64,000 nt of DNA from Roseibacillus sp. (GTDB lineage Bacteria > Verrucomicrobiota > Verrucomicrobiia > Verrucomicrobiales > Akkermansiaceae), in NCBI GenBank assembly GCA_051251855.1, contig JBPOGI010000001.1, positions 960,001-1,024,000 on the forward strand. The letters are read 5' to 3'. Below, piece after piece: positions 1 through 50,644 of this stretch; within the stretch, counting starts at the first letter, position 1, and each line of letters opens with the position of its first letter. A program made the translations under genes and the position numbers. Under the pieces are notes generated by a model. The model saw only the letters and a program-made list of their open reading frames with translations, made no database searches and was not told the DNA's origin.

Positions 1-2206
1 TGGTGCCGATCAGCACCTCGCCATCGGTGGACTCAAGGTCATAGGCGATTTGCATCTGCTGGGCAGGTTTCAAGGTAGGGATGGTAAGGATGACGGTCTC
101 GCGGTCTTCGCTCAATTCTGCAGCTGTTACTTCCACGCTGTCCTGTTTTTTGTGGCTTTTTTTCTCTTGCTCAAGAGCACTTTTCTCGGCTGCAAGGTCG
201 GGGTTGTCGATGGAGAACTGGCCGGAACCATACTGGGGCCCTCGAATGTATTTCCAACGCTTGATGGCGAAGGACTCGGGGTCGGTGGCGAGTTCTTCAT
301 CAAGCTCGCTATCGAATCGCAAGGTGAGCTTGTCGCCGGAAACGGACATGGCTTCAGGGAGTCCAAGGAGAGTGCCTTCGTTGTGGCGGATGCGCTGAAT
401 TCCGGATTCGGTGGCGGCATTGGATTGCCAGCCTCTCATCCCAGCCACATACATTGAACCGTCTTTGTGGAAGGCGGCACGTTGAGCTGAGGATGAAAGT
501 TTGATGGGCAGCTTAATGACCCCTCCTTGAATTTGGCCATTATCAAGCTGCTGTGTCAAAACGCGGTAGACAGTTGATTGACCGTAGGAAAGATGGAGGA
601 GTTCTCCGGGAGAGAGGCCAATCTTGGCCTGCTTGGGAACCCAGATTTGGCCGCCGCCCGAGTTATCGACATTCATGGGGAGATAGCAAAGAGGCTCGTG
701 GAACTCTTTCTCGAGGCCTTGTCGTGCTTGTTCAGTGCCGAGAAAGACAGGGCGTTGGTCTTTCGTGAAGTAGTTGATTTTGCAGCAGGGCTGCCAAGTG
801 CCTTCGTTTTCGCCGGTCGTGAGCTCGCCATTGGGACCGACTCCAATGCCACCAGGCGCGCGCAGCCCTGTGGCGACAACGGTTAGGTTTTTGCCGTCAG
901 GAGTGAGCTTCATGAAGGCTCCATTGTGATCGAGGATTTTGTCGAAGTTACGGCCACCTGGGCGGACGGGGGATGCCTTGGCAAAGTAGAAGTTGCCCTC
1001 GGAGTCGGTCTCGAGTCCGAAGGAGAACTCGTGGAAGTTGTCGGTGATGAGAACGTCGTAGTTGAAGACTTTATAATGATCGGCCTCGTTATCGTCGTTG
1101 AGGTCAATGACTTGCCAGATGCCATCGCGGCAGTTGAGGTGAATGACATCGTTAACGATCTTCAGTCCCAAGGGCTCGAAGAGACCTGCGGCGAAGCGCT
1201 TCCAAGTAAGGGTCTTGAATTCATTGAGCCCTGAGACGATCCAGACATCGCCACCCCACGTGCAGACTGCTGCGCGGTCGCCCTCGGAGAAGATGTCAAA
1301 ATCGGTGATGCGAACCTTGTTTTTGTAGGGGGACTGTTCGAGTTGAGGTGGGAGAGGAATCTGGTCGACAAGAAAGGCACCGTCACTGTTGCTAAGGGCT
1401 GCTGCCACTTCGAAGGTTTCGGGATAGATAGATGGTCCGCCTTCTGTTTGGCTATCGAGGCCAAGAATTCCGCTTCGCATCAGTTCGATGGCGCCACCTG
1501 GATAGTAATCGATTCCAATGATATCGGTGCTTTGCTTAGTGAGGTCCCAAACAATCCCGTCGTCTCCTTGAGTCATGGTGACCGTTCCCTTGGGTTTGGA
1601 CGACTCTTCGGAAGGGATGGTGGAAAGACGGGTGCGATAGGTGCCCTCATGGCCTTCGATATGGAGAATGCGTCTGATGTTTTCACCATCCATAACGACT
1701 TTTTCAAGGATTGGAGTCCCGTTAACCTTGTAGTCGAGAATAACTTCGTGCCCATGGCGGTAATAGCCTTTGAATTGCAAGTGCTCAAAATTCCCATGAC
1801 CAGGATGTTTTCGAGTGTCAGCAAAGGACCCTTCTGAGTCGGCCCAAGCTGGGCTGTTGGCGTTGTTAAAATAAGGAGACTCCTGATTGAGAATTTTGTT
1901 CTGGGTCCCATGTTTTCCGGCGAAGGGTGTGTTATCGAGTGAGACTCCCTTATTGGTAGCTGTGACGAGTTGCAAGGTCTCGGTATTGAAGACGGCGACC
2001 AAGTTTCGATTTTCGGGATCGGGATGGAGGAGAATCCCTTTGATTGCCGCATCGGAACGATATTCGCCCTGATAATAATCTCCCCAAGTTTGCGCAAAGG
2101 CTGGGCCAAAGTCCGCGTGGTCGAACCAAGTGCTTTTTTCCTTTTTCTTAGGGGCGGCAGATAGGGAAATAATTGAGAGAAAAAGAAATGAATAGAGAAC
2201 GTTCAT
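1..2206 (-). CDS. Secreted DUF6797-like PVC-family protein (3' end runs off the window; absent from the ORF track)
   Basis: Hand translation from ATG at 2206: MNVLYSFLFLSIISLSAAPKKKEKSTWFDHADFGPAF (signal peptide) ... LLHLSYGQS ... YVAGMRGWQSNA ... WKYIRGPQYGS ... DGEVLIGT. Both ends are in the same frame and the track shows no closed ORF in that frame. Family call is by recalled motifs. Confidence 0.75.
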   Translation of the reverse strand, partial: MNVLYSFLFLSIISLSAAPKKKEKSTWFDHADFGPAFAQTWGDYYQGEYRSDAAIKGILLHPDPENRNLVAVFNTETLQLVTATNKGVSLDNTPFAGKHGTQNKILNQESPYFNNANSPAWADSEGSFADTRKHPGHGNFEHLQFKGYYRHGHEVILDYKVNGTPILEKVVMDGENIRRILHIEGHEGTYRTRLSTIPSEESSKPKGTVTMTQGDDGIVWDLTKQSTDIIGIDYYPGGAIELMRSGILGLDSQTEGGPSIYPETFEVAAALSNSDGAFLVDQIPLPPQLEQSPYKNKVRITDFDIFSEGDRAAVCTWGGDVWIVSGLNEFKTLTWKRFAAGLFEPLGLKIVNDVIHLNCRDGIWQVIDLNDDNEADHYKVFNYDVLITDNFHEFSFGLETDSEGNFYFAKASPVRPGGRNFDKILDHNGAFMKLTPDGKNLTVVATGLRAPGGIGVGPNGELTTGENEGTWQPCCKINYFTKDQRPVFLGTEQARQGLEKEFHEPLCYLPMNVDNSGGGQIWVPKQAKIGLSPGELLHLSYGQSTVYRVLTQQLDNGQIQGGVIKLPIKLSSSAQRAAFHKDGSMYVAGMRGWQSNAATESGIQRIRHNEGTLLGLPEAMSVSGDKLTLRFDSELDEELATDPESFAIKRWKYIRGPQYGSGQFSIDNPDLAAEKSALEQEKKSHKKQDSVEVTAAELSEDRETVILTIPTLKPAQQMQIAYDLESTDGEVLIGT

Positions 2207-35319: not shown

Positions 35320-35692
35320 GGCGAAAGCGAGTCGTTTTCCCCTAAGTTGATTGTTTTTTCGCGCCAGTCCTCTCGAAGTTGAGTGTTTTCACTGGAAGTC
35401 TCTCTCTTCGGGGGGACGAAGGTTCTAAAATTAAGGCTGTTTTCGCTAAGGGGGCAGTTTTGTCGAGGGTCGGGGGACTTGAGGTAGGCCGTCTGTTAAA
35501 TCTGAAGTTGCTGGGTAAAGTGGAAATTAGTTAGCGAGACTATATGTTTTCGAGCGTTTTAAGAGGGCGATTCACATGGGGTTAACGCAAAGGAAATCAA
35601 GCGATTAAGCTAATCTTAGCAGTCGACAAGTTCTTCCTGTTTGGCGACTTCCAGTCTTTTTGGTATCTGTTACGAGGAAACAACAACAGTTT

Positions 35693-38600
35693 ATGAATAT
35701 TAGAAGATTCCTCTTTTGGATCGTTCTGGGAACGATTCTGTCCGGAAATTTGCTTAGGGGGCAAATACCACCAGTCAACAACCCAGAGGTGTGGCTTCGA
35801 GGGGATTTGGGAGTGGTAACCGACGGTGGTGGATTGATCGAACGGTGGGAGGACCAATCGGGGAATAGCTATCATTTCGAGCAACTCGATGGAACAAAGA
35901 GGCCTTCGTTAGCTCCTCATGGTTTTGTTGTCGGTGGTGGTGTATTGAACGAGATTCCAAGAAATAGTAATGGGAACGCAACTTGGGGTGGGACAGTTGC
36001 GACAGACTTAGTGATTGATGAAGAGGTTCAGGTCACCGAGTTAGCTGTCTTCGATCAAAACCAAGATGGACTCTCGGAGACTATTACAGTTGCCCTTTGG
36101 CAAAGACTCGAAAATGGTACTCCTAATGTATTCGAAGATGACATTGAAGGTGCCATTTTGGTGCAACTGGACTTTACGACGGCGAGCCCAGGAACTCTTG
36201 ATGGCAATCGACGTTGGAAGACGCTTGCAGCTCCGCTGACGCTGCCACCTGGAAGCTACTCACTGGGGGCATGGGGATATGGCGTCCAGAATTACCACTT
36301 TTACAATGATGCGACTCCTTCTCCAGCAAGCCCTGTCAGGCGGGTGGGTTGGGGGCGGTTCTCAGACACGACAGCTCCAGGGGCTTGGCCAAATAATCGA
36401 GGGTCCGGTTCCAGTACAGATCGGTATGCGGGAGCGGTGGATATGCGATACGAGGTCACGGGGACTCCGACTTTGTCGCGGGCAGCGGTTCGGTTCGATG
36501 GCTCTAATGATGGGCTGCAGGCGGTGGATACTCTTTCGCTGAGTCGTCCTGGGAGCGTCTTTGTCGTCTATCGAAGAGATTGGGCTGATGCGGGATATAT
36601 TTTGCAGAATACCAGTGGGACCCACTGGTATCTGGACCACAATACCGCTTACGCGGGAGGAACGGTCAGGGAGCAAGATCGTAGTTGGACTGCGCCTTGG
36701 TATGCAGAGATGCAGAACAGTGCCGATGGCACTCGCTTTCGCACGAATGGGGAAGACTGGACGTATTTTGGCGACTTTAATGGTGCCAATCCCGGTCGGC
36801 TTACGATTGGCGGCGGCGCGGGGCGAAGTAATAGCCCTTTAGGGGTTCGCATCGCTGAGGTCTTGGCTTACGAACGGGAGTTGACGGACTCCGAGAGGTG
36901 GCAGGTGAACGACTATCTCGCGGAACGTTATGGTTTTGAAACTTTGCCAGTGGCGACTCCTAAAATTGCCCCCGAGAATTCGATTGGTTCTGGTTCCGTT
37001 TCGGTATCGATCACATGCGACACTCCCTCGGCAGAAATTCGGTATACGATCGACGGAAGTGAACCGGACGGGTCTTCAATATTGTATGGCGCGTCCTTTT
37101 CGGTAGCGCGCGGGGTAGAGGTGAAATCAAAAGCGTTTCTTGCTGGGAATACTGATAGTGGGGTGGCTGCTCGCTACTATGAGGATAGTAGTGATAGTGA
37201 GATTCCGGTAAGTGGCTCCACGATGTGGTTGCGAGCCGATCGTGGGATCGAGCTTGATTCTGCAGGAAGGGTCGCTCGCTGGCAGGACTTGACGGGTAAT
37301 GGGAGGGATATGACTCAAGGTACGGGATATCAGCGTCCAGAGCTGGATCCGAGCGGGATGGAATTAGGGCAAGGAATAGCGATTCAACCTTCAACAAGGA
37401 GCAATAATGGGGGCAATGCTTATAACGGAACATTGGGAATGGACTTTGTAGTGACTGAGGAAATTGAGGTCACCGAGTTGCGTGCGTTTGACCATTTGGG
37501 AGATGGTTTCGCTACTCCTGTCACGGTGGCGATTTGGGTGCGCGATGATGGCGGAACGGCTCTGACTCCAGAGGACGATCTTCCTGGAGTTTCTTTGGTT
37601 GAGATCGAATTTTCCGCAGCGAATCCCGGGACGCTTGGGGAGTTTTCACAAAGGGTTCAAACCCTACCCAGTCCGCTGGTGTTGGCTCCGGGTAGTTATA
37701 CTCTGCTGGGATGGGGGTTCTCAGGTGACAATAGATACCACAATGGCACGAGTGGGAGTTGGCCTTTGGACAAGGGCATCGAATTTGTGAATCGTTCTCG
37801 CTATCTAGGCACTCTTGGGAGTTGGCCAACAACTTTGGATATTGATGAGGTCAAGTATCACAACTCCGCCAACTTCCGCTTCAATCGCACGAGCGGGACT
37901 GTCGTTTCCCGTCCAACGGTGACCTTTGATGGCGCTGATGACGGGCTATGGGCGCTCCCTGCCACCGATTTAGCCAATCCTGCTACGGTTTATGTGGTTT
38001 ACGATCGGCAGGGAACAGACAGTGGCTATGTGATGCAAAGTAGCCCCGGTCAAAACTGGTGGTTCTTGCGTAATGATGGGGCCTTTAATAACAACTGGAT
38101 TCAGAATCGGGCTATCCCTCGCGCCAAGGTGACGATTGCTGGAATGTCGAGCGATGGCTCCGGCACTCGATTTTTTGTAGATGGCAATGATTGGACCGAA
38201 CGTCCGGGGCAAGTAGGTGCGCCGAGTCGTTTGACGCTGGGTGGCGGCGTTGGGAGGTCCATTGACCCCCTCTGGGTTGAAGTTGCAGAAGTGGTTGCCT
38301 TTGATCGGGTCCTCGATGCCAATGAACGTTTGGAGGTTGAGAATTGGCTACGCACTCGCTATCTCGATGAAGGCGCCATCGGTCCTGAGGTGGTCGTTTC
38401 TCCAGAAGGTGATTTTGGAGCGAGCTCGGTTTCGGTAGAACTCTCTTCGATTTCGGGTGCAGAGATTCGTTATACTCTGGATGCAAGCGAACCCACTCCT
38501 AGTAGCGCTCTCTATTCGGGGGCGATTTTGGTGCCGCGTGACACGAAGGTTCGAGCTCGGGCTTGGCTCAATGGGAACGGAGGAACGATTAACGACGAAT

Positions 38601-41600
38601 TTTATGGTGATTCAGGAACAATCGAGCTGCCGGTTGCAGGGGCGAATTTATGGGTGAGGGCTGACTGTGGTTTGACTTACGATGAGGATGGGGCGGTGAA
38701 GGCTTGGAAAGATCTCACTGGGAATGGGAACGATTTTTTGCAGGAAATTCCCGAGCTTCGACCCCGACTAGATGAGTCCGGTTTAAATTCGAGTGAGCGT
38801 GGAGCAATCCAAGCAACGGATGGCAATGGTAATGGAGTTTACGCCGGATCACTTGGTAATGATTTGTCGGTGACGAGCCCAATTGAAGTAACCCATCTCG
38901 GTGCCTTCGATCATCTGGGGGATGGCTTCAATGGGACGATCACGGTGGAGATCTGGACTCGGAACGACAATGGGACGGCCTCAAGGTCCGATGATACGGG
39001 AGGAACGATGTTGGCGTCGGAGACTTTTACCACGGCTTCTCCCGGCACTTTAGTTGGGCGTCAGCAACGATTTAAAGCTCTCGCTTCAGCAATCACTTTG
39101 GCACCTGGTGAATACACAGTCTTTGGTTGGGGCTATGTTGGTGGAGACCGCTATCGTGAAGGTCGTGGTTCGACTCAGATCAACGATAATCGGTTTTCGT
39201 TTCCCGCTTGTGTCTACAATGGAACCGCAGGGGCTTTCCCAACTGTGGTCGATGGAAGTGGTCCTCTCGATTACAACGGAGTGGCGAATTTTCGAGTGAC
39301 GCCTGTTTCGCCAGTTGCTCAGGTGCCTGCGATTGTGTTCGATGGCGTCAACGATGTCATCCATGGGGTCGATACCATGAACTTTGGTCGCCCTTCCACG
39401 GTCTTTACGGTTTTCGAAATCGATCGTGATGAAAATGGTGATGTCATTCAGAATACTTCGGGAACTGCTTGGGCTATTGATAAGCGAGGCTTCTATGCGG
39501 GGAACTGGGTGAGGCTTGAGGATTTTGCCATTGGTCAGCCGACCTTGGCTACGATGGTCAACGGGGCTGATTATACCGAGGCTTGGCGCAACGGGAAGAA
39601 TGTGACCACCAATAGGACGTTGTCCACGGGTTCACCAGGAAGACTCATTATGGGTGGGGGTGAGAATGGTGTGTCGGTCGATCCTCTTCCGGTCCGAATT
39701 AGCGAGGTGATCGTCTTTGAACGAATTCTCGATGAAGGAGAGTTGAATTTGATGTCTAACTATCTCGCCGAGCGGAATGGTCTCTATTTGCCTCGGGCGG
39801 AGATGCCGGAGATTGGACCCTTTGCTAGTTACGGATCTGGTCCTGTGGAAGTGAATTTGAGTTCGGTAACACCAGGGGCGGAGCTTCGTTACACGATTGA
39901 TGGAAGTGAGCCGACTGCAACATCACTTCTCTACTCGGGACCATTTAATGTTGCTCGAGGGACCCTTGTTCGTGCGCGGGCATTTGGGCCTGGTCTTCAA
40001 GCCAGCACGATTTCCGAAACATTCTTTGGAGATGAGGCGATGCATCCTCTTCCGGTCACAGATCCTGCGATGTGGCTTCGGGCCGATGTTGGGGTTGAAG
40101 AGGGGGTGAATGGTGGGGTCGAGCGTTGGCGCGACTTGTCAGGAAATGGCCATGATGTGGTCCAAGTTTCAGAGGCAAGAGCACCGCAAAGAATTACAGG
40201 ACAGTTTGGCGGGAGTGGCCAAAGCCGGCTCATGGCACCGAATGAGAGCCCTTTGGGCTTGGGTGCCTACAATGGGTTTCTGGCTGCCGATTTTCAAGTG
40301 GACTATCCCATCGAGGTGACTCATCTCGGAGCTTTTGATTCTCTTGGTGATGGAATAGCGGGAGCCATTACGGTGAAGCTCTATGAGACTGATGATGGAG
40401 GCACTTCTGGAAATAGTAATGCCGACCGAGCAGATGATACCTTGGTGAGCTTGTTGGGGGAGCTTACTTTCACAAACGCTAATCCAGGAGTTCTCGACCA
40501 AGGAATTCGGCTTCTCCCCTTGCCGAGTCCTATCATTCTACAGCCGGGGATCTACACTCTCTATGCGACTGGCTATACGGGAGCCGATACCTACCTCAGC
40601 CAAGATTTGACCAACCAACCCGTTGGTTTCGGGGTCACAATGCTGAACCGAAGTCGCTATTCCGGCACGGAAGGGGCTCTATTTCCTGGGATTGCAGTGA
40701 ACGATGATCGCTATCTGATGGTGGCCAATTGTCGCTTTCAACCTGTTGGATTTGGAGGGACATCGCCTGCGAGTGATGCGATTCGATTTGATGGTTCGGA
40801 TGACGGCTTGTTGGGGCCTGCTGATTTTCTTGTGGACCGTCCTTCGACTGTTTTCATGGTTTTTGATCAGCTTTCGTCTTCACAAGGAAGACTTCTCCAA
40901 AGTGGCAGTGGCGCCAATTATTTGCTGGGGCCACATAGTGGAACTCAAGGCTTGTTTGCCAACGGGTGGGTTGCTCAGAGACCAGTGAGTCCTAATCAGC
41001 CTGCTCTCGTGATTGGTGAGCAGGGAACCGACTATAGCCGCTATTTCTACGCGGGTAGCGAATTTACCCAAGAACCTAATTTCACCGGAAATTTAGGTCG
41101 AGTCGCTCTGGGCGGTGGAGAAGGAGTTTACTTCCAGCCCACCAATGCGGATTTGGCTGAGTTAGTGATCTATGATCGTGTGTTGAGTGTGAGTGAGCGT
41201 CAAGCGGTTGCCCAATCGCTTTCCGATAAACATGGTTTGGCACCTCAGCCTCTGCCCGCGCCCGAGATGACGCCGGACGGAGGACTCTATGCTTCCTCTC
41301 AGACGGTGACCATCTCCTCTCCAATTCTGGGATCTGAGATTCGCTATACCTTGGATGGAAGTGAGCCTGATGTCGCGTCGACTCTTTATACTGGAAGTCT
41401 CACGATAGCGGCGGATACCGTGGTGAAGGCTCGTTCCTATGCTGCTGGTTATCTCGCAGGGCCCGTTCAAACGGGAGCCTTCTTTATCGATAGTGGTGCG
41501 CCTGTGCCTCCTTCTCGCAGCACGATGGAGCTTTGGCTCCGAGCTGAGAAGGGAGTCGAGGGCAGTGGCTCAGATGTTACTGTTTGGAGAGACCTTTCAG

Positions 41601-44600
41601 GTCGGGGTGCAGATGCCACCGTTGTCGGTTCTACTAACCTTCCGCAATTAAATGCCTCTGCTATTGGAGGGGCTCCGGGGGTTGTCTTTGATGGAATTGA
41701 TGACTATTTGAGACTTGAACCAGGCTTCGAGGGCTTTGGCTCAGGGCATACTGCGATTTTTGTCACAAACCCTGATGAGTCACTTTCTAACTGGGAGCGG
41801 CTAATTGATTTTGGTCGTGCCACCAATGTCGATAACCTCTTCTTTGGAAGGAGTGCCGCCACAACCGATTTCGTTCTTGGTACTCGTTCGGGTAGCACGG
41901 CTGGAGGTCTGGGCGCCACTGATGCTTTCCGTTCCTTGTCTGACCAGATTCTCACAGTGGTGCAGAATTCTGATGGAAGAACTCGAATCTATCGAAATGG
42001 CAATCTCGAAGTGGAATCTCCTTCGATTCTATTACCGCGTGATATTTTGAGGACGAGAAACTATGTGGGGCGGAGCAATAGGACAGCTGATGCCTACTTT
42101 TCGGGAGCCATTAGTGAAATCATCCTATTTGAGGGAGCGCTTGATGATTTCGAGCGAGAGGTTTTTGAAGACCAGATTCGTGCGACCTACGGAATTGCGA
42201 GTTCAGCGACAGGCACGGTTGGTTTTTCACCGGATTCGACCTCTCTTTATCCGTCAGGAGTATCTGTTGTTCTTCAAAGCGCAACTCCTGGAGCCGCGAT
42301 TCACTACACTTTGGATGGCTCCATTCCGGACGAGGCTTCTCCATTGTATGCCAGTCCGATTGCTCTGGCTCAGTCGAGTCGCGTTCGCGCTCGCGCCTTC
42401 TTCGTAGGTCTGAATCCAAGTAACCTTTCTGAGACGACTTATCTTGTGGGTGATCCTCCTTCGAGCGGAGACGGCCTTTTGGGTAATTATTATGACAATG
42501 AGGATTTCACCGGAGCGTCTCTTACTCGAGTTGATCCCACTGTTGCTTTCGACTGGGGCTCCGGAAGTCCGGATCCGGCGATCGATTCGAATTCATTTTC
42601 GGTGCGTTGGACGGGGCAAGTGGTGCCTCGTTTCACGGAAGATTATGTCTTCTCGACTTTTGATGATGGCGCTCGCCTCTGGGTGGACTTGAATCAGAAT
42701 GGTACTTTTGAGGACGCGACAGAACTCCTCATTGATGAGCTGGATGCGAGCAGTTTCGTTGAGAGGTTCGCGCCTCCGGTGGCGATGGTGGCAGGCGAAC
42801 TTTATGATATCCAGCTAGAGTATCAGGAGGAGACAGGCACTGCACGAGTCAGTCTGCGCTGGGAGTCCTTTAGCGAACCCTTGGCTGTCATTCCGCAGAG
42901 CCAGCTCTTTAGTGATGCAGAGTTTGGACAGACTGTGACAACGCCAGTAATTTCTCCTGTAGGAGGAACCTACACTGCAGCAGTCGATGTCACTATTGAT
43001 ACGACAACTGCGGGATCGACTCTCTACTACACCGTTGATGGGAGTCTTCCAGACGAAGGTTCGCCTGTGTATACTGGAGTGTTCGTGGTTCCCGCAGATA
43101 CAACTGTGCGAGCGAGGGCCTATAAGGCGGGATTCAATCCCTCCGGTGTAGATACTAAGGTTTACGATATAGATGCGCAGCCTCCCACAATTACTTCCTT
43201 TGCTTGGGATGGGTCCGAACTGTTGGGCGGGGAGACGTTTGTTGCGTCTGGTCAATTCAGTATTGAGGCGACGGACAACCAGGGAGTTGCGAGCGCGGAG
43301 TTCTATTATCAGCCGGTAGGGTTTTCCAATCAGGTCTTGATTGGGCGTGATACTTTTCCGAGTAATGGGCTTACTACCAACTGGAATGTAGCGAGTGTTC
43401 CGGATGGTTCCTATGATATTATTCTACGGGTGTTCGATACAGCAGGGACGTTTTCAGAGACCTCGCGGCAAGTTGACGTTTCTCTCATCACCCTCGCAGC
43501 GCCGGTCATTTCGCAACCTGTCACTGGTTTTGAAATTGAGGAGCCTACAGTTTCCCTACGAGTGGACACTTTGCCATCAGCCAATGTTCGTATTCGCCGC
43601 GATGGAATACTGATTTTTTCAGGCTATGCTAATACTTCCGGTATTCTCAACTACGTGGCGTCGGTGCCGGTGGGAACTAGCTCTTTTGTGGCCACTGCGG
43701 TCAATCGTGCGGGATCGAGCCCAAGTTCGAATTCAGTAGCGGTGACTCGGGTGCGAGAGTTCCCGCAGCTCACGCTTTCTTTCTCGAGCGATACTCTGGC
43801 AGAGGGTTCGCCCCTTAATGGCTTGGTATCGATTCCGGTGGCAGTGGCGGAAAATGTTTCGGTGGTGATTTCTAGCAATCGACCCGGTGAAGTTGAAGCA
43901 CTCGCAGCGGTTACCATTGTTGCCGGCGACACCAGCGCGCCTTTCATCTTAAATGCAGTTCAAGACGCTCGCGTGGAGGCTATGAGCATGGTGAGAGTGA
44001 CCGCGACGGCTCCGAATCATCGTGATGGAGTTGGGAACCTAATGTTGATGGATGATGATACTCCGATTCTGACTTTGGAGATTGATGAAGTCTCGGTGGC
44101 GGAGGACTTCGGAACGGTAACAGCCCGAGTGAGCCGAGCGAATTCTACCAGCCTTTCGCAGCGGATCTCCCTCTCGAATTCTGCTCCTGACCAAGTGAGC
44201 GTGCCAGCCTTCGTGACCATTCCTTCGGGACAGACTGAGATTGGCTTCACGATGAGCGTTAATGATGACGACCTTGCGGATGGCAATCAGTTCGTCAGTA
44301 TTCAGGCAATAGTGGAGTCTAGTGGGCAGGTAGTTTCTTCCTCGACGGTGGAGATTCTCGAGGTGAGAGACAATGAGGGACCATCGTTAGCGCTCATTCC
44401 AAATGCCTCTTTGCTCACCGAGGGTTCGGTCAATACCTTTACTCTCCGACGTTCGGGGATTGCCGTTACCGAGTCTTTGGTGGTGTCGTTGGAACAGACT
44501 CCGACCGGAGAAGTGACGGCTCCTGCAACGGTGACTTTCCCAGCGAACAGTTCTGAGATTTCGGTTTCGGTAACGGCTTTGGACAGCAGTAATCCGGGTA

Positions 44601-47600
44601 CGCGAACGGTGATCTTGCGAGCGACGGCGGTTGGCTATACGGATGGTTTGGCTCGTTTCTCGGTAACTGACGAGGTGTTGCCGGACCTTGCTCCTGATCA
44701 ACTAACGTCTCCTTTGATAGCGAAGTCGGAGAAGAGCATACCTATTTCTTATCGGGTGCGGAATCTGGGCTTGGCGGAGACCGAAGATGTCTCCTATCTG
44801 GAGCGAGTTTACCTGTCCGATGATCCTTCGCCGAGTGATGACGATACCATTGTATATCAGGTCGAGCAGACAGGTGCTGTTGGCGCGGGAGGAAGCTACG
44901 CACGGAACGTCTCAATTTTCACTCCTAGGGAGGAAGGGCAATACTTCATAATCGTGACGATCGATGCTGCTGATGCGGTCACAGAGGTTCTGGAATCTAA
45001 CAATACGATTGTCAGAACCACGCCGCTAGAAGTGCAGCCAGCTTATTCGGTGACGGTTCAGACTGCTGAGACCATGATTCCAGCTAACACTCCGATCGAG
45101 TTTACGGGTTCGGCTACCACCTCCGAAGGACTGGCTGCTGCTTTCTCAACGGTGAGTATCCATATTGGGATGGGAGATACCGAGCGAGTGATTACTGCCT
45201 TCACAGACGCGTTAGGAGTTTTCAGTGCGACGTGGACCCCACTTCCCAATGAAGGCGGCTCTTATACTATTGGCGCAACCCATCCCGGAACGACGAGTGC
45301 GCCGGTGCAGGATTCCTTCGAGATTCTGACGATTGGATTCGACCAGCCACCGGCTGTGAGTTTGAAAGAGGGCGAGTCGGTCATCGTGCAGACCACTCTG
45401 TCCAATCCCAATGAACAGGCCCTAACGGGAGTGAGCTTGGATGTGGTGAGCGACCTCCCAAGTGGACTCACTATCACGCCGATGCTTCCTTCCACGACCA
45501 TTCCTGCGGGTGGCGAACTGATGGTGCCCATCACGGTCTCGGCAGGGAATGGCTTTTCGGGCACTGGCTTCTTTGGTCTTGAAGTGTCGACTGCTGAGGG
45601 AGTGGTGAGGTCGCAGGGGATTTCGGTTCGTTCACAACTCTTAGTTCCGGTTCTCACTTTGGACCCCTCCAGTCTGGTCTGCTCGGTGCTCAGAGGGTCT
45701 TCGAAGACAGTGAGCTTCGAGGTCACAAACACGGGCGGGTTGCAGACGGGAGCAATCCAGGTTCTCATTCCAGATGTGACTTGGATGAGTTTAATCTCCA
45801 GTAATCCCTTGGCCTCACTGGCGCCTGGTGAATCAACAACGGTCAACCTTCAATTGGCTCCTGATAGCACCGTGGACCTCACGCTCTTCACCGGTAATCT
45901 AGCTCTCAATGCCGAGAATGGAGGTTCGCGAAACATCAACTATCGCTTCCGAGTGGTCTCCGATTTGATGGGAGATCTCGCCGTCACGGTGGTCGATGAG
46001 GCTTACTACTTCACGGAAGAGGCGCCTGCTTTAGAGGAGGCGCGGGTGGTGGTTCGCGATGCCATTACTTCGCAGCAAATTGCTGAGTTCACTACTGGGG
46101 TGGACGGGGTGGCTAGTTTTCCGAATTTAATGGAAGGATGGTATCGGGTTGAAGTGACTGCCGAGCAGCATGATCGTTTTTCTGGCAATGTTTTTGTAGA
46201 TGCAGGCTCTACGAAGGAGGAGCTTATTTTCATTTCTCGCCAGCTGGTGAACTACTCTTGGACCGTCGAGGAGATCGAAATTGAGGATACGTATCGTATT
46301 AAAATCGAGACCACCTTTGAAACCAACGTTCCGGCTCCAGTGGTCACCTTGGCTCCCGCTGTCATCAATGTGGAAGAGCTCCAAGAGCTGAGTCAGCAGA
46401 AGGTGGTCAATATAACGATTACGAATCATGGTTTCATCGCGGCTCAGAATAGTGAGTTCGTATTTTCGAGCCATCCCTTCTACACGTTCACTCCTTTGAT
46501 TTCTAGCTTGGGGACGATTCCACCGAGGACGTCGGTTGTGATTCCGGTGACGGTGTCTCGGACTGGGATTTATACTTCCGAAGGGAACGTCATTACTCTC
46601 GATCCCTCGGTCGTGATTCCGACAGGACCCTGTGGGATTCCCTGCGGAGCGGGAGGCGGGCTCTGCTATAGCTACCCTTGTGGCCCGAATGATGTCAATA
46701 AATGCTCCAATATAGGTTTCAGTGGAATCGACGGGGATTGTGGGACGAAGGGTGGGAGTAGCGAAAGTTACCTTGCCTTCCATGGCGGATTCTATGGGGG
46801 AGGCGGCGGAGGTGGTGGTGGCGGAGGTGGGGCTGGCGGTTCGGGGCTTTCGTTCGCGCTTCCTGATCCTTGTGACCCCTGTTTGGCACGAGCCTTCGCA
46901 GAATGTCTCATCGGGTTTGTTCCGGGATTGGGTTGTGTCTACGGAACGATGAAGTGTGTATCTTCGGCCAACCAGGCTGCGGGTGGAGCTGGGGGAACGG
47001 CGTCCACGATTTTTGGAACAAATGGCAACACCCAAGCCGAAGCTTACGTGAATTGCATGAATGCCATTGCCAGTTGTGCCGCCGATGCTTCCAAACTCAG
47101 TCCTTTAGGCTGGTTTATCTCCGCAGTTCAATGTCAGCAAGCCTTCTCTGCCTGTGGTGGCAGTGGCGCAAGCGGGGGCGGAGGAAGTTCCTTGCGAAGT
47201 GCCGAGTCCTCGGATTCGAAGAGTGACAAGAGCTTAGGCGGCGAGAAATCCGGTGGATCTCTAAATGAGACTCTTGCTTCTCAGCTAGGTGAACCATGGT
47301 TGGAGCTAATGAGCGAAGGTGATCGAGCGCGTTCGGCGGAAGTTGCAGATGCCGTTTCCGGGGTGGAGGCCTTGTTCGACTTGATGGCAGTGATGCTTGG
47401 TTCTCGTGAGCGCTATCTCTTGACCAACGAGCCAGGCGGAAAAGAGTGGTTTGCGGCCTATATGGTAGCAATTCAAAGCACGAGCGAAGACGGGCGCATC
47501 ATGAGCGCCAGCGAACTGAGCCAACTGACGACCCTTGCTAACGCGGTTACTGGTGGTTCGGCTCCTTTGGGGGCGGCTGCGGAGCGATGGAATCGGTCTG

Positions 47601-50600
47601 TTGTTTATGGAGCGATGGAAATCTTCGAGGATAGCGATGTTCCCGCTGGTGACAGCACGGACTTTATCGCCAATTCGCTTTTCTTCGCAGCTATCGAAAG
47701 AGGAACTGTGGTCTACGATGAGTCGCTTGAGGATGGCTTCCTCGACCCTACGGAAAAATTTGCAGTAACTCTAAATGACTACCTAAATTCCTTGACTGAA
47801 GGAGGAGGGGGAGTTTGCGCCCGGGTGAAAATTGAGATTTCGCAAGATTTGATGCTCACTCGGACTGCCTTCGAAGCGACCTTGGTGTTAGAGAACGAAC
47901 GCGAGGATGCCGAGGTGACGAATGTCGGTTTCGATCTTCAAATTCGTGACCTGTTAGGGGAGCCTTCCGAGGACCTGTTTAATATTCAAGTCTCCAAATT
48001 GGAGAACTTGGGCGCAATTGATGGCACGGGGGTGATTGCAGAAGATCTCTCAGGTAAGGTGCAGTGGACTTTGATTCCGCGGGATACGGCGGCCTTGACT
48101 GAAGAGACGCAGTATACTGTTGGAGGGGTGATTACCTTTACTCAAGATGGTCTCTCTTACACCATTCCAGTGGAGAACGTGCCTATCACGGTGCGTCCAG
48201 ATGCCTCTTTGACGCTGAAGTATTTCCACCAGCGTGATGTCTACAGTGATGACCCTTACACCGATGCTATTGAGCCATCCGTCCCTTACAAGTTGGCGGT
48301 CCTAGTTGAAAATAGTGGCTATGGGGCTGCGCGGGATTTGAAGATTATTTCGGGACAGCCCGAGATTGTTGAGAATGAGTCGGGGTTGATTATTGATTTT
48401 AAAATCATCGCGACTCAGGTGGATGGGCTACCAATGACGCCGTCGCTCACGGCAGATTTTGGAGACTTACCTCCTCAGGAGAGTTCGATTGCAACTTGGT
48501 TCTTAACGTCGACTCTGCAAGGGCTCTTCATCGATTATAAGGCCACCTTCGAGCACTTATCAGGACTGGGTGATTCGCGGATCTCATTGCTCCAGAGTGT
48601 TGAGATTCATGAAACCATTCGCTTCATCGAAGCAAAAGATGGTTCACAAGCCTTCCTGGTGAATGATGTGCCGGATGTGAATGACTACCCGGATACGATT
48701 CACTTCGAAGATGGCAGCATTGACTTGGTGACGGTCTCGGAAAGTGCTTCCGTTATCGGTTCTCTTGGTGGTGGGAATTTTCAAGTGACATTGGAGACAG
48801 GTGCGTTCTCAGGATGGAATTACATTCGGGTTCCTGATCCGAGTGAAGGGGACTATCAGCTAGTGGGGGTAACTCGTTCGGATGGTGGAATTCTTCCGTT
48901 GGACTTCAATGCCTGGACTTCTGATCGGACCTTTATCGGGCAAGGGCGTCGTCCCCGTTACGAAGATATTTTGCACTTGGTTGATTGCGATAGTCCTGGG
49001 TCTTATATTCTCACTTATGCAACGAATCCTGCTGCGGATTCAGTGCCGCCGAGCAGTAGCGTTACGGCGTTACCCGCAACCAGCCCTAAGGATATTCCTG
49101 TCTTTTGGAGTGGTACCGACAATGTCGGAGTCGCGCTCTACGATGTCTTTGTTTCTTCGGATGGAGGACCGTGGGCTCAGTGGAGAGATAACACTGCTGA
49201 GGTTGGTGCGGTGTATCCCGGCACCGTAGGGGAAACTTACTCATTTTATTCCGTCGCCATTGATGTGGCAGGAAACAATGAAGTGAAGCCACCTTTGGCG
49301 GAAGCGACCACAGAAGTGGTCAATAATAACTTGTCGCCGAGTATCGTGGCGATTTCTGACCAGTCTATTGGGGAGGGGGAAACTTTCCAGCTCCAAGCCT
49401 TGGCTAATGACCCTGATGGGAACAACGCTGACATCCGCTTCTTGGTGGGCACTGGTGCCACGGGATTAACAATCGATCCCATCACGGGACAGATGCAGTG
49501 GGTCACCGGGGAGACCACGGGCGGTTCCGCCGTCAGTGTGATTGTGGTCGCTCGCGATGCGGCTGATCCAGCCGGAGTGGCGAATGAGGAGTTCACGATC
49601 ACGGTGCAAGAGGTAAATAGCGCCCCGACCATTAGCAGTGTTGGACCGCAGACTCTGGAAGAAGGGGGAATGCTAATTGTTGATATTGACTCTGATGATG
49701 GTGATGTTCCGGTGCAGGGCCTGACTTATTCTCTGGGAGCGAGTTCTCCGTCTGGTGCGAGCGTAGATTCGGCTAGTGGGGTGGTGACTTGGATGCCGAC
49801 TTCAGCACAGGCCGATCAGAGTCACGTTATTACGGTGAGAGTAGTCGACAATGGTAGCCCTAATCTCATGGCTGAAACGAGCTTTTCGGTGACGGTCATA
49901 GGTGAAGACGATCTTGCTCCAGTCTTTAATGCCGTTCCTATTCTGTTGTGGCTAGAGGGGCAGAGCTACAGCTTCGATGTTGTTGCTGTCGATCCAAATG
50001 GCGACCCGATCACGTTGGGTGCGAATGTCTCAGGAGCTCCAGGCGCGAGTTTTGCTGACTTGGGTGGAGGCATCGGTCGAGTAGACTGGGATACCTCCGG
50101 AGTCCCATCATCAAGCTATATTATTTCACTGATAGCGTCTGCAAACGGGCTTTCTACTAACGGGCAGTTGGTGATTCGAGTAGAGGAGGATGATTTGTAT
50201 TGGTCCTGGGTTGAAGATGAATTCGGGGAAGTGCTACCGGCAGGACTCGCTGCTGCGGATATTGCTTTCGATGGAGATCCTGACGGTGACCTGAGGACGA
50301 ATGTTCATGAAATGGCCCTTCTGACTGACCCTCTTAAGAGTGATCAGCCCAAGATCGAACTCGAACTCATACAGCAGGGTAATTTCCGTCTTATTCAGCT
50401 AGAAATCCTTCGTCGGACGGGCTCAGAGGCCTACGTCGAACTCTACCCTTTCCGCAGTGATGATTTAAAAGGTCCATGGGAATTTGTCCCTGAGTCGGAT
50501 TGGAACGTGGCTTTCGATCGATTTGGCGATGAAGATTCTCGGCCGGAAACTGAGTCAGTTGAATTCTCGATTCTTGAGTTTGATTCAGAGGAACTTCCTG

Positions 50601-50644
50601 CTGAAAATTTTTTCCGAATTGAGTCCTATGAGACACTTCCCTAG
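35693..50644 (+). CDS. Giant (~4,983 aa) secreted multidomain surface protein: LamG-like/DUF4082-like repeats, FN3-associated (CHB_HEX_C), PA14, Calx-beta-like, CARDB, Cys-rich core, Ig/cadherin-like repeats
   Basis: Uninterrupted ORF; signal peptide MNIRRFLFWIVLGTILSGNLLRG; 5x WLRAD...W.D.SG...FDG.DD; 6x (R/H/Y)YT.D(G/A)S.P; PA14 FSVRWTG..DDGARL; CARDB LPDL...E..ESNN. Confidence 0.9.
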   Translation: MNIRRFLFWIVLGTILSGNLLRGQIPPVNNPEVWLRGDLGVVTDGGGLIERWEDQSGNSYHFEQLDGTKRPSLAPHGFVVGGGVLNEIPRNSNGNATWGGTVATDLVIDEEVQVTELAVFDQNQDGLSETITVALWQRLENGTPNVFEDDIEGAILVQLDFTTASPGTLDGNRRWKTLAAPLTLPPGSYSLGAWGYGVQNYHFYNDATPSPASPVRRVGWGRFSDTTAPGAWPNNRGSGSSTDRYAGAVDMRYEVTGTPTLSRAAVRFDGSNDGLQAVDTLSLSRPGSVFVVYRRDWADAGYILQNTSGTHWYLDHNTAYAGGTVREQDRSWTAPWYAEMQNSADGTRFRTNGEDWTYFGDFNGANPGRLTIGGGAGRSNSPLGVRIAEVLAYERELTDSERWQVNDYLAERYGFETLPVATPKIAPENSIGSGSVSVSITCDTPSAEIRYTIDGSEPDGSSILYGASFSVARGVEVKSKAFLAGNTDSGVAARYYEDSSDSEIPVSGSTMWLRADRGIELDSAGRVARWQDLTGNGRDMTQGTGYQRPELDPSGMELGQGIAIQPSTRSNNGGNAYNGTLGMDFVVTEEIEVTELRAFDHLGDGFATPVTVAIWVRDDGGTALTPEDDLPGVSLVEIEFSAANPGTLGEFSQRVQTLPSPLVLAPGSYTLLGWGFSGDNRYHNGTSGSWPLDKGIEFVNRSRYLGTLGSWPTTLDIDEVKYHNSANFRFNRTSGTVVSRPTVTFDGADDGLWALPATDLANPATVYVVYDRQGTDSGYVMQSSPGQNWWFLRNDGAFNNNWIQNRAIPRAKVTIAGMSSDGSGTRFFVDGNDWTERPGQVGAPSRLTLGGGVGRSIDPLWVEVAEVVAFDRVLDANERLEVENWLRTRYLDEGAIGPEVVVSPEGDFGASSVSVELSSISGAEIRYTLDASEPTPSSALYSGAILVPRDTKVRARAWLNGNGGTINDEFYGDSGTIELPVAGANLWVRADCGLTYDEDGAVKAWKDLTGNGNDFLQEIPELRPRLDESGLNSSERGAIQATDGNGNGVYAGSLGNDLSVTSPIEVTHLGAFDHLGDGFNGTITVEIWTRNDNGTASRSDDTGGTMLASETFTTASPGTLVGRQQRFKALASAITLAPGEYTVFGWGYVGGDRYREGRGSTQINDNRFSFPACVYNGTAGAFPTVVDGSGPLDYNGVANFRVTPVSPVAQVPAIVFDGVNDVIHGVDTMNFGRPSTVFTVFEIDRDENGDVIQNTSGTAWAIDKRGFYAGNWVRLEDFAIGQPTLATMVNGADYTEAWRNGKNVTTNRTLSTGSPGRLIMGGGENGVSVDPLPVRISEVIVFERILDEGELNLMSNYLAERNGLYLPRAEMPEIGPFASYGSGPVEVNLSSVTPGAELRYTIDGSEPTATSLLYSGPFNVARGTLVRARAFGPGLQASTISETFFGDEAMHPLPVTDPAMWLRADVGVEEGVNGGVERWRDLSGNGHDVVQVSEARAPQRITGQFGGSGQSRLMAPNESPLGLGAYNGFLAADFQVDYPIEVTHLGAFDSLGDGIAGAITVKLYETDDGGTSGNSNADRADDTLVSLLGELTFTNANPGVLDQGIRLLPLPSPIILQPGIYTLYATGYTGADTYLSQDLTNQPVGFGVTMLNRSRYSGTEGALFPGIAVNDDRYLMVANCRFQPVGFGGTSPASDAIRFDGSDDGLLGPADFLVDRPSTVFMVFDQLSSSQGRLLQSGSGANYLLGPHSGTQGLFANGWVAQRPVSPNQPALVIGEQGTDYSRYFYAGSEFTQEPNFTGNLGRVALGGGEGVYFQPTNADLAELVIYDRVLSVSERQAVAQSLSDKHGLAPQPLPAPEMTPDGGLYASSQTVTISSPILGSEIRYTLDGSEPDVASTLYTGSLTIAADTVVKARSYAAGYLAGPVQTGAFFIDSGAPVPPSRSTMELWLRAEKGVEGSGSDVTVWRDLSGRGADATVVGSTNLPQLNASAIGGAPGVVFDGIDDYLRLEPGFEGFGSGHTAIFVTNPDESLSNWERLIDFGRATNVDNLFFGRSAATTDFVLGTRSGSTAGGLGATDAFRSLSDQILTVVQNSDGRTRIYRNGNLEVESPSILLPRDILRTRNYVGRSNRTADAYFSGAISEIILFEGALDDFEREVFEDQIRATYGIASSATGTVGFSPDSTSLYPSGVSVVLQSATPGAAIHYTLDGSIPDEASPLYASPIALAQSSRVRARAFFVGLNPSNLSETTYLVGDPPSSGDGLLGNYYDNEDFTGASLTRVDPTVAFDWGSGSPDPAIDSNSFSVRWTGQVVPRFTEDYVFSTFDDGARLWVDLNQNGTFEDATELLIDELDASSFVERFAPPVAMVAGELYDIQLEYQEETGTARVSLRWESFSEPLAVIPQSQLFSDAEFGQTVTTPVISPVGGTYTAAVDVTIDTTTAGSTLYYTVDGSLPDEGSPVYTGVFVVPADTTVRARAYKAGFNPSGVDTKVYDIDAQPPTITSFAWDGSELLGGETFVASGQFSIEATDNQGVASAEFYYQPVGFSNQVLIGRDTFPSNGLTTNWNVASVPDGSYDIILRVFDTAGTFSETSRQVDVSLITLAAPVISQPVTGFEIEEPTVSLRVDTLPSANVRIRRDGILIFSGYANTSGILNYVASVPVGTSSFVATAVNRAGSSPSSNSVAVTRVREFPQLTLSFSSDTLAEGSPLNGLVSIPVAVAENVSVVISSNRPGEVEALAAVTIVAGDTSAPFILNAVQDARVEAMSMVRVTATAPNHRDGVGNLMLMDDDTPILTLEIDEVSVAEDFGTVTARVSRANSTSLSQRISLSNSAPDQVSVPAFVTIPSGQTEIGFTMSVNDDDLADGNQFVSIQAIVESSGQVVSSSTVEILEVRDNEGPSLALIPNASLLTEGSVNTFTLRRSGIAVTESLVVSLEQTPTGEVTAPATVTFPANSSEISVSVTALDSSNPGTRTVILRATAVGYTDGLARFSVTDEVLPDLAPDQLTSPLIAKSEKSIPISYRVRNLGLAETEDVSYLERVYLSDDPSPSDDDTIVYQVEQTGAVGAGGSYARNVSIFTPREEGQYFIIVTIDAADAVTEVLESNNTIVRTTPLEVQPAYSVTVQTAETMIPANTPIEFTGSATTSEGLAAAFSTVSIHIGMGDTERVITAFTDALGVFSATWTPLPNEGGSYTIGATHPGTTSAPVQDSFEILTIGFDQPPAVSLKEGESVIVQTTLSNPNEQALTGVSLDVVSDLPSGLTITPMLPSTTIPAGGELMVPITVSAGNGFSGTGFFGLEVSTAEGVVRSQGISVRSQLLVPVLTLDPSSLVCSVLRGSSKTVSFEVTNTGGLQTGAIQVLIPDVTWMSLISSNPLASLAPGESTTVNLQLAPDSTVDLTLFTGNLALNAENGGSRNINYRFRVVSDLMGDLAVTVVDEAYYFTEEAPALEEARVVVRDAITSQQIAEFTTGVDGVASFPNLMEGWYRVEVTAEQHDRFSGNVFVDAGSTKEELIFISRQLVNYSWTVEEIEIEDTYRIKIETTFETNVPAPVVTLAPAVINVEELQELSQQKVVNITITNHGFIAAQNSEFVFSSHPFYTFTPLISSLGTIPPRTSVVIPVTVSRTGIYTSEGNVITLDPSVVIPTGPCGIPCGAGGGLCYSYPCGPNDVNKCSNIGFSGIDGDCGTKGGSSESYLAFHGGFYGGGGGGGGGGGGAGGSGLSFALPDPCDPCLARAFAECLIGFVPGLGCVYGTMKCVSSANQAAGGAGGTASTIFGTNGNTQAEAYVNCMNAIASCAADASKLSPLGWFISAVQCQQAFSACGGSGASGGGGSSLRSAESSDSKSDKSLGGEKSGGSLNETLASQLGEPWLELMSEGDRARSAEVADAVSGVEALFDLMAVMLGSRERYLLTNEPGGKEWFAAYMVAIQSTSEDGRIMSASELSQLTTLANAVTGGSAPLGAAAERWNRSVVYGAMEIFEDSDVPAGDSTDFIANSLFFAAIERGTVVYDESLEDGFLDPTEKFAVTLNDYLNSLTEGGGGVCARVKIEISQDLMLTRTAFEATLVLENEREDAEVTNVGFDLQIRDLLGEPSEDLFNIQVSKLENLGAIDGTGVIAEDLSGKVQWTLIPRDTAALTEETQYTVGGVITFTQDGLSYTIPVENVPITVRPDASLTLKYFHQRDVYSDDPYTDAIEPSVPYKLAVLVENSGYGAARDLKIISGQPEIVENESGLIIDFKIIATQVDGLPMTPSLTADFGDLPPQESSIATWFLTSTLQGLFIDYKATFEHLSGLGDSRISLLQSVEIHETIRFIEAKDGSQAFLVNDVPDVNDYPDTIHFEDGSIDLVTVSESASVIGSLGGGNFQVTLETGAFSGWNYIRVPDPSEGDYQLVGVTRSDGGILPLDFNAWTSDRTFIGQGRRPRYEDILHLVDCDSPGSYILTYATNPAADSVPPSSSVTALPATSPKDIPVFWSGTDNVGVALYDVFVSSDGGPWAQWRDNTAEVGAVYPGTVGETYSFYSVAIDVAGNNEVKPPLAEATTEVVNNNLSPSIVAISDQSIGEGETFQLQALANDPDGNNADIRFLVGTGATGLTIDPITGQMQWVTGETTGGSAVSVIVVARDAADPAGVANEEFTITVQEVNSAPTISSVGPQTLEEGGMLIVDIDSDDGDVPVQGLTYSLGASSPSGASVDSASGVVTWMPTSAQADQSHVITVRVVDNGSPNLMAETSFSVTVIGEDDLAPVFNAVPILLWLEGQSYSFDVVAVDPNGDPITLGANVSGAPGASFADLGGGIGRVDWDTSGVPSSSYIISLIASANGLSTNGQLVIRVEEDDLYWSWVEDEFGEVLPAGLAAADIAFDGDPDGDLRTNVHEMALLTDPLKSDQPKIELELIQQGNFRLIQLEILRRTGSEAYVELYPFRSDDLKGPWEFVPESDWNVAFDRFGDEDSRPETESVEFSILEFDSEELPAENFFRIESYETLP
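35770..41490 (+). repeat. Four ~1.43-kb (~475 aa) diverged tandem coding repeats within the giant gene
   Basis: WLRxD motif recurs at ~35790, ~37223, ~38648 and ~40070 (fifth, shorter copy at ~41531), each followed by FD..GDG, PG.Y.L, FDG.DD and IRYT.DGSEP blocks. Confidence 0.85.

Follow-up and report, generated by a model that had tools for sequence, protein, structure and literature searches.

The window, a 64,000-nucleotide stretch of a Roseibacillus sp. contig, includes an open reading frame of 4,994 codons (35660-50644, + strand) that encloses, in frame, the core region studied here. Translation likely starts at ATG 35693, which is followed by a signal-peptide-like leader. The gene is flanked by the divergent ilvB and by recR, and no immunity-like gene adjoins it. 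Pfam separates the N-terminal repeats by Fn3-associated/CHB_HEX_C domains. NCBIfam gave one match, far below threshold and outside the core, Pfam found no RHS or TEN_YD domain over the full length of the protein, and a motif search of the protein for a thioester-like CxEQ was empty. The features are as follows.

35693..50644, +, gene for the giant exported protein, present once in the genome (4,983 aa when counted from the ATG; TTG 35660 is the start given by the ORF finder)
35693..35761, +, leader resembling a signal peptide, judged by eye
35792..42145, +, five N-terminal repeats whose matches to LamG/ConA lectins are weak and fall below the Pfam cut-off (Laminin_G_3, E 0.0043 and 0.00021)
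42470..42868, +, PA14 domain (Pfam E 3.3e-16)
44681..45010, +, CARDB domain, part of the stalk (Pfam E 1e-16)
45962..46246, +, frame domain 1, modelled as a transthyretin-like/CnaB-type beta-sandwich with the DEAYYF loop (VIA Z 13.0, rmsd 1.3, 81 aligned to 5aq0_B)
46247..46330, +, predicted 28-residue beta-strand threading frame domains 3 and 4 (model, covariation, discontinuous VIA matches 94..744)
46331..46741, +, frame domain 2, MSP/ASH-like (VIA Z 10.1, rmsd 3.1, 111 aligned to 1grw_A)
46568..46642, +, site-1 loop, which has no K/R in this copy, is basic in close relatives and contains a furin-type site in the copies of animals
46742..46870, +, flexible, Gly-rich linker that includes the Gly12 run (46796-46831) and ends where the exchangeable slot begins
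46871..47161, +, first part of the type A cargo, a module of four predicted helices containing 9 Cys (modelled at low confidence, with pLDDT of about 40-68)
47162..47260, +, Ser/Gly/Lys linker of site 2, containing one RS and three KS; animal copies have a furin-type site at the equivalent place
47261..47800, +, second part of the type A cargo, a helical domain that bears the conserved motif RWNR[ST] and is missing from type B and empty slots
47813..48631, +, frame domains 3 and 4, from VCARV (C4053 at 47816), with the DDPYT motif; a separate gene in split systems
48632..48994, +, conserved beta domain ending the frame (model)
49622..49897, +, He_PIG/cadherin-like Ig domain of the C-terminal stalk (Pfam E 2e-10)

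The whole protein has 22 Cys, of which 16 lie within 46631-47818 while the other six are spread over about 4,600 aa; 15 of the clustered residues span only 175 aa (aa 3658-3832). An earlier, sequence-only reading of this DNA had singled out the Cys cluster and a 12-Gly run, and both are present and in frame, as is every motif that it quoted. The Gly12 run is encoded by all four Gly codons and is thus not a simple DNA repeat. As that reading required, the Cys are conserved in homologues: 13 of the 16 are kept in 76-98 of 98 aligned rows with the same slot type (type A, see below), so the cluster is not due to chance. The poorly kept ones are C3658 (1/98), C3669 (19/98) and C3682 (20/98). The hairpins that it described are only moderately hydrophobic, with a best 19-residue Kyte-Doolittle mean of 1.55 (1.29 with Cys set to 0). 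Its view of the core as one unit of about 1,000 aa has to be given up, because about 620 of these residues model as beta-sandwich domains.

According to the structural model, the core is a conserved, unnamed frame of four Ig-type domains and a beta domain. The strand at 46247-46330 is predicted to lie antiparallel to the strand at 47813-47896 (covariation registers i+j 741/743, at a low depth of 277 rows, effective 225). Ordinary tandem Ig folds had been named beforehand as the outcome that would speak against a special module; the flanks do model as Ig folds, but their arrangement is interlocked and not tandem. The last hairpin of frame domain 2 (46643-46741) carries C3662-C3694 together with the unpaired C3674 of YxCG, and the D-P of DDPYT is invariant. 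Autocleavage between Asp and Pro at this D-P and a Cys-Gln thioester at YxCG are both conceivable. Frame domain 1 is also matched by the TTR domain of fly teneurin (VIA Z 10.8, rmsd 1.9, 84 aligned). The matches listed by VIA and by the whole-model searches are to single Ig domains; the fusion protein HAP2 is among them by virtue of its Ig domain 3 alone (Z 9.3, rmsd 3.4, 108 aligned). A fold search returned no structural relative of the whole model (best TM-score 0.10 and 0.12 in PDB, 0.14 in viral models). The sequence search of solved structures yielded nothing for the core (best E 0.14) and nothing significant for a type A or type B insert, and with profile A5 it matched only the C-terminal cadherin-like flanks. 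Pfam on the core gave CarboxypepD_reg/SpaA only, below threshold, and ESM Atlas gave no usable match. A HEMIH consensus was rejected as an HExxH metalloprotease motif, as it lies in a predicted beta-strand and reads HETIR in this copy. Homodimer prediction on the empty-slot protein P0106 scored 0.02; the program returned "no answer", and the result is hence neutral.

The frame holds one internal slot whose content is exchanged between relatives, which were sampled as 150 of 3,724 clusters. Its contents are a Cys-rich helical module (type A, as in the window), a long beta-meander (type B), nothing, an RHS shell or a Hint-ended module. In 149 proteins we counted 152 slots, of which 102 are type A, 40 are type B and the remaining 10 are neither (four of these are empty), and in a set of 80 loci that overlaps with these proteins, 70 loci were classed (40 type A, 23 type B and 7 other); empty slots number five in all. 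Exchange between types A and B requires 28 changes on a tree built from the flanks only (260 rows), and the flanks of P0069 (type A) and P0125 (type B) are 89% identical. Both types occur in Roseibacillus persicicus (L001, L040). Hypervariability between conserved flanks had been anticipated for an alignment of homologues and is borne out by the closest relative, which shares 29% identity with the window's protein in the slot and 74-83% in the flanks.

No Pfam family recurs in more than one of 36 type A or one of 18 type B inserts, and looking for the inserts in other contexts produced next to nothing, with weak matches only. Of 157 type A modules, 45% reach a best hydropathy above 1.6, compared with 3% of their helical domains, and only 3% of the modules go beyond 2.0. 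Type B strands alternate hydrophobic and polar residues across 20-28 positions. No orphan cargo cassette was found in the organism's own genome or in the fetched loci.

At E<=1e-30 the frame matches 2,046 protein clusters from bacteria and invertebrates. The bacterial proteins occur in Verrucomicrobia, Planctomycetes, cyanobacteria and Bacteroidota, while the named animal matches come from molluscs, annelids, a hemichordate and a crustacean; 18 unnamed rows cluster with the latter. The earlier suggestion of related giant proteins elsewhere in bacteria and in animals holds, but the animals are not the early-branching ones then proposed. Animal entries with the C-half only were rejected as split genes, being fragments that begin mid-domain.

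In several relatives the frame is combined with parts of toxin systems. An RHS shell is fused between both frame halves at locus L100 (RHS_repeat E 1.6e-45), where it has no evident toxin tip, and at L099 an N-half is combined with RHS repeats and with a tip that resembles the phospholipase Tle1 (E 3.3e-23). At L085 and in Eleftheria terrae (L090) the N-half stops after the Gly linker and an RHS gene comes next; L090 additionally has an ankyrin gene and a gsp-type secretion cluster. The N-half of L088 terminates in helices and PT-HINT (E 1.4e-12), an autoprocessing domain that stands where animal copies have a furin-type site, and Hint forms end about 25-30 aa past the Hint domain. The stretch upstream of the L098 C-half gene resembles type B at E about 0.009 (3,110 ORFs) and was not counted. 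The rhodanese-like partners of split systems have no match in the window organism's genome. The RHS cargo of distant relatives thus connects the toxin-type reading proposed earlier to toxin systems; since these relatives share only 29% and 32% identity, function may not carry over from them. Overall, the sequence-only reading was partly right: conserved Cys, hypervariability and bacterial and animal kin are borne out, its membrane-inserting or fusion-type domain is hypothetical, and the exchangeable slot, the main point, was not visible to it.

R-x-[KR]-R sites occupy site 1 in 13 and site 2 in 17 of 19 named animal slots, rows that are related by descent and not independent samples, against a background of 27 in 1,669 windows. 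The core of this copy has no furin-type site. The K+R share of the bacterial site-2 linker is on a par with the core average (0.073 vs 0.069), though above that of the Gly linker (0.027), and [KR][SA] occurs at site 2 in only 41 of 98 rows. The Ser/Gly/Lys linker is nevertheless likely to be cleavable, as first suspected, given the furin-type sites at the equivalent place in animal copies. It is likewise likely that a C3738-C4053 disulfide tethers the cargo to the frame, which would be the disulfide-tethered module of the earlier proposal. The two residues are jointly absent: among 157 rows the lone type A row without C4053 also lacks C3738 (one further row lacks C3738 only), the empty-slot protein P0147 lacks both, and in split systems the C-half gene begins a few residues ahead of the C4053 equivalent.

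The explanation that we favour, which as a full chain falls a little short of an even chance, is a putative glycan-guided carrier of a protease-released, membrane-active module. To judge from the leader and the conserved Cys, the protein would be exported by Sec and acquire its disulfides, after which the N-terminal repeats (probable lectins) and PA14 may bind glycans, as their domain matches suggest. The frame would adopt the modelled architecture, which covariation supports, and comparison of relatives indicates that cargo is swapped at a fixed point after the Gly linker; these two steps jointly we regard as highly probable. C3738-C4053 would then hold the cargo while a cut at site 2, strongly suggested for the animal copies and presumed here by analogy, parts the module from the helical cap domain. 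The freed module might finally bind or perforate the membrane of the lectin-caught cell. Against the carrier stand the lack of an immunity gene, of an orphan cassette and of a K/R at site 1 in this copy, the empty slots, the moderate hydropathy, the low-confidence model of the module and the lack of a rhodanese-like partner match. The core without a furin-type site, the unremarkable K+R content of the bacterial site-2 linker, the distance of the RHS-bearing relatives, the L100 shell without an evident tip, the short ends of the Hint forms and the kinship of the animal rows also count against it. A wider proposal is tentative and rather unlikely, namely that an ancient two-part Ig frame, fused or split and disulfide-joined, serves as an effector-delivery chassis accepting any cargo in one internal slot, from RHS containers to two new membrane-penetrating modules, with interchangeable lectin tips and several secretion routes, and that invertebrates took it up as a furin-activated, pattern-receptor-fused pore-forming defence protein.

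A non-toxic adhesin or recognition molecule is possible but doubtful. The frame would then serve as a display head, and the slot as a variable domain that sets specificity or acts as a spacer, diversifying for new partners or for escape from predators or phage, and cleavage would only mature or shed the protein. Lectin-like, PA14, CARDB and cadherin-like flanks, the lack of both immunity gene and orphan cassettes, the persistence of empty slots and a PEP-CTERM-like gene next in 10 loci agree with this, as do animal copies fused to EGF, cadherin and scavenger-receptor-type domains and the precedent of teneurins, a toxin-derived scaffold turned adhesion receptor (PMC6425310). Left unexplained, however, are the RHS shells, Tle1-like phospholipase tip and Hint domains in the same slot, and the hydrophobic face on two unrelated slot folds. 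The RHS cargo is equally unaccounted for if the saposin-like-layout helical module and the one-sided beta-meander are alternative lipid carriers that bind or extract lipids, without forming pores, for feeding on cell debris or membranes. This is improbable, although hydropathy is moderate and below transmembrane level, one face of the type B strands is hydrophobic over the full length, beyond what spanning a bilayer needs, the disulfide pattern is nested and no immunity gene would be required; no saposin or lipid-carrier Pfam match was found in the 36 type A and 18 type B inserts. We give still less credence to a surface filament or sheath in which the frame self-assembles or cross-links through the unpaired YxCG Cys and the DEAYYF/DDPYT cluster, with the slot as decoration. 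Of the 157 type A slots, 122 have an odd number of Cys, as do 37 of the 40 of type B, but the number in this copy is even (16); C3674 is kept in 156 of 157 rows without a co-varying partner, and a Saccoglossus protein has three slots in tandem. Covariation couples core residue F17 to Y238, V245 and Y766, which may be too long-range for an extended monomer, but the alignment is shallow and a bent monomer could give the same contacts. Cargo exchange would also be left unexplained.

Thousands of very large proteins annotated by their stalk domains only thus have a common core with a cargo slot. The frame connects giant surface proteins of the four bacterial groups to loci with RHS toxins, and also to the uncharacterised proteins with furin-type sites in the animals named above. 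A membrane-active cargo would mean a new way of displaying toxins and a new family of invertebrate effectors; a cargo that only adheres would mean a second, teneurin-like reuse of a toxin-linked scaffold for recognition. The mapped cut sites, tether Cys and slot ends open both readings to direct testing.

No description of this protein family was found in the literature covered, mostly papers outside subscription journals. Alpha-2-macroglobulin and complement proteins combine an Ig-type scaffold, a protease-sensitive linker, an inserted helical domain and, in animals, furin processing. Their general layout resembles that of the frame, but the thioester CxEQ is absent here, and the top Foldseek row, E. 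coli alpha-2-macroglobulin, has a TM-score of 0.07, no more than any Ig chain would give. In layout the type A module, with about 80-95 residues, four predicted helices, nested disulfides and amphipathic character, resembles saposin-like membrane-active proteins, and with an active part that a disulfide would tether after a cut it recalls disulfide-linked two-chain toxins. Its Cys spacing differs, however (8 nested and 1 tether), and Pfam gives no match.

Polymorphic toxin systems, in the main-text part of Zhang et al. 2012 (PMC3482391), include Sec/T2SS-exported RHS and HINT types; "CARDB" and "rhodanese" do not occur in that part. The conserved carrier with an exchangeable effector part described there is found here as well, and distant frame members have RHS repeats, Hint, the Tle1-like tip and an ankyrin neighbour. 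In contrast to the systems described in that part, the variable part of the window's protein is internal, with conserved domains on either side. About 940 conserved and stalk residues follow the slot, a C-terminal effector being found only in split relatives such as L099 and L089, and the window's form has no RHS, Hint, immunity gene or orphan cassette. What teneurins and their bacterial relatives (PMC6425310) share with the frame is a transthyretin-like domain after Ig/CARDB stalks and a bacterial toxin-linked scaffold that is also present in animals. Animal frame copies bear teneurin-type EGF repeats. The window's protein differs in having no FN-plug, NHL propeller or YD shell; its unit is a predicted interlocked Ig frame with a slot.

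The open reading frame 35660-50644 (+), of 4,994 codons, contains the whole cysteine- and glycine-rich region, and the module of 16 cysteines with a polyglycine run that the sequence-only reading had claimed is a real feature. Sixteen of the 22 cysteines of the open reading frame lie in 46631-47818, 15 of them inside 175 residues; the run of 12 glycines uses mixed Gly codons, and 13 of the 16 cysteines are conserved in 76-98 of 98 aligned rows with the same kind of insert (type A, cysteine helices and an RWNR helical domain). Upstream, the protein carries weak LamG-like repeats, PA14 and CARDB, and Ig/cadherin-like repeats lie on the C-terminal side of the region. Among these repeats (35792-42145), all below the Pfam cut-off, the first four show a LamG-like unit apparently split by a second, unassigned beta domain. 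The gene is single-copy in its genome, G000, and flanked by ilvB and recR; among the best 80 of 163 named-genome matches the nearest named relative is Roseibacillus persicicus (83% identity across the downstream 400 residues). At the position held by recR in the window, 3' of the giant gene, 10 of 62 homologous loci with a called neighbour have a gene for a leader-bearing protein of ~230-380 residues whose tail, read by eye, is PEP-CTERM-like (L005:12860-13609, L009, L013, L024 and L040; also L020, L033, L054, L070 and L078). Five of these ten genes are mutually homologous and abut the giant gene's stop codon.

The model of the core, 45960-49010 (59 rows, mean pLDDT 81.9, pTM 0.65), renders both flanks as beta domains (~85-97). 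Between these flanks it places a helical domain, modelled confidently, a four-helix cysteine module of low confidence and two linkers that are disordered. Structural alignment of the model assigns a transthyretin-like fold to frame domain 1 (Z 13.0, rmsd 1.3, 81 aligned), an MSP/ASH fold completed by the first cysteine hairpin to domain 2 (Z 10.1, rmsd 3.1, 111 aligned), and an Ig fold with residues from both sides of the slot to domain 3 (matches span core 94..744). Antiparallel pairing of 28-residue strands, core 96-123 with 618-645, is supported by covariation in 277 rows. On the basis of these alignments and this covariation, the frame is predicted to be interlocked, with domain 2 and the cargo as insertions and the chain coming back at C4053. 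Elsewhere in G000, which has 11 open reading frames of more than 2,500 codons, one of 4,904 codons (C11:235787-250498, -) gives weak repeated matches to the profile of the frame's N-half and none to that of its C-half, and an RHS-like gene (C13:40403-46165, -) has a leader and a hydrophobic C-terminal tip.

The exchanged stretch is bounded by the Gly linker and VCARV. The 152 slots from 149 proteins comprise 102 of type A, 40 of type B and 10 others, four of them empty; in the type B model a single helix accompanies six or seven strands, each 20-28 residues long, with strict hydrophobic/polar alternation. Eighty loci were fetched and ten dropped (truncated, shifted or with stops), leaving 70 usable (40 type A, 23 type B, 7 other). 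On a 260-row flank tree the A/B states need 28 changes, where shuffling gives a mean of 56.8; the types are therefore clustered yet, by this count, have been exchanged many times; in one A/B pair the flanks are 89% identical. The variability proposed for the cysteine segment between conserved flanks was also found within type A: between the window and R. persicicus, identity is 74% and 83% for the two flanks but falls to 29% for the cysteine helices and 38% for the helical domain. A second insertion point is the loop before the first cysteines (site 1), where L021, L041, L042, L043, P0119, P0130, P0132 and P0134 hold large unassigned domains, with little or nothing in the main slot; Pfam scans of five of them picked up PPC or Ig domains only.

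A search with the 1,016-residue core gives 3,724 clusters at E<=0.001 and 2,046 at E<=1e-30, with cluster details taken from the best 150. Among the best 80 of 163 named-genome matches, the core occurs mainly in Verrucomicrobiota, also in Planctomycetota and Nostoc; Calothrix and Flavobacterium are further bacterial members, and Saccoglossus, Halocaridina, several bivalves and gastropods, Owenia and Lamellibrachia are named animal ones. Sixteen named animal rows and 18 further rows form one branch with support 100 (flank tree, FastTree, unrooted). A homologue attributed to the diatom Fragilaria crotonensis (P0262) may be contamination. The domains on either side of the core change freely from member to member, RTX repeats, dockerin and T9SS tails among them, so the family likely uses several export routes. 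Three type A paralogues (5,476-9,641 codons) lie inside ~70 kb of G163:C1, at 4.68-4.76 Mb. Occurrence is patchy, with members in 17 of a sample of 301 genomes of the window's phylum; this sample yielded 17 further stretches for slot comparison.

Slot content of the 17 further stretches
Fused, type A: six
Fused, A-like: one
Fused, slot empty: one
Fused, RHS shell in the slot: L100
N-half, RHS repeats and a Tle1-like phospholipase tip: L099
N-half ending in helices and a Hint-like domain: three
C-half only visible: four

The Hint score exceeds the Pfam cut-off only in L088; it is sub-threshold in L087, L097 and L101, and L103 was recognised by eye. In L085 and Eleftheria terrae (L090) the N-half ends just past the Gly linker, with an RHS gene as the next one; in L090 a gsp-type cluster and an ankyrin gene are present as well. 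The RHS-type repeats of Methylomonas koyamae (L089), read by eye, are in line. The C-half gene of split systems has its own leader and starts just before the C4053 equivalent. The distant, RHS-bearing members are 29-32% identical to the window. A rhodanese-like gene accompanies the split systems (L085, L087, L089, L090, L101, L103), in two together with a transglutaminase gene; with the full gsp-type cluster of L090, these genes could form a dedicated export and maturation kit. At L082/L085 1-4900, on IMG/VR contigs that are probably host DNA beside prophage, the split system adjoins phage baseplate and tail-fibre-like genes, read by eye.

The presence and absence of cysteines across 157 type A rows suggests the pairs 3662-3694, 3669-3682, 3766-3799 and 3749-3825 and, from very few informative rows, 3741-3832 and 3738-4053; it gives no partner for C3674. 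The empty-slot protein P0147 is without C3738 and C4053, and most slots have an odd cysteine count. Of 19 slots in named animal members (one short slot dropped), 13 have R-x-[KR]-R ahead of the first cysteine and 17 have it past the last, compared with 27 of 1,669 background windows. Among the 18 further rows of the animal branch, 2 have it ahead and 9 past; looser dibasic sites are present in 17 rows ahead and in 16 past. Judged from these motifs, an animal-type double cut would excise ~160-190 residues that stay attached through strand insertion and a disulfide. The cleavage-type signal is weaker in bacteria than in animals: per 100 residues, [KR][SA] is found 2.7 and 2.1 times in the two linkers, 1.0 times overall and 0.3 times in the Gly linker. 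Of the two sites in the window's copy, basic residues are present at site 2 alone, the Ser/Gly/Lys linker after the cysteine helices.

The frame architecture and the exchange of its slot are well supported. For their function we tentatively favour a glycan-guided carrier, whose lectin-like end would bind a glycan surface; a cut at site 2 would release the stapled helical module from the helical cap, and the freed module would act on a membrane. Cutting of the linker is suggested by analogy with the animal and Hint forms, and the hydrophobic face in both cargo types, with the toxin company of distant members, points to a possible membrane action. Against the carrier stand the lack of an immunity gene beside the giant gene (its neighbours being ilvB and recR), the lack of orphan cargo cassettes in G000 or the fetched loci, the borderline hydropathy of the module, the existence of empty slots and the distance from RHS forms. 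A eukaryotic target would fit the absence of an immunity gene. That the protein is a variable adhesin is the least unlikely of the other explanations; a lipid carrier is improbable, and a cross-linked surface polymer slightly more so.

The literature consulted describes neither the frame nor the slot; supplements, notably that of PMC3482391, could list such architectures. In its way of working the protein would resemble a polymorphic toxin carrier; unlike classical polymorphic toxins, it has no C-terminal effector, immunity gene or RHS shell. A motif search found no alpha-2-macroglobulin thioester motif in it. Compared with teneurins as portrayed in PMC6425310, it is without their scaffold, and its family shares with them a TTR-like domain and a distribution across bacteria and animals.
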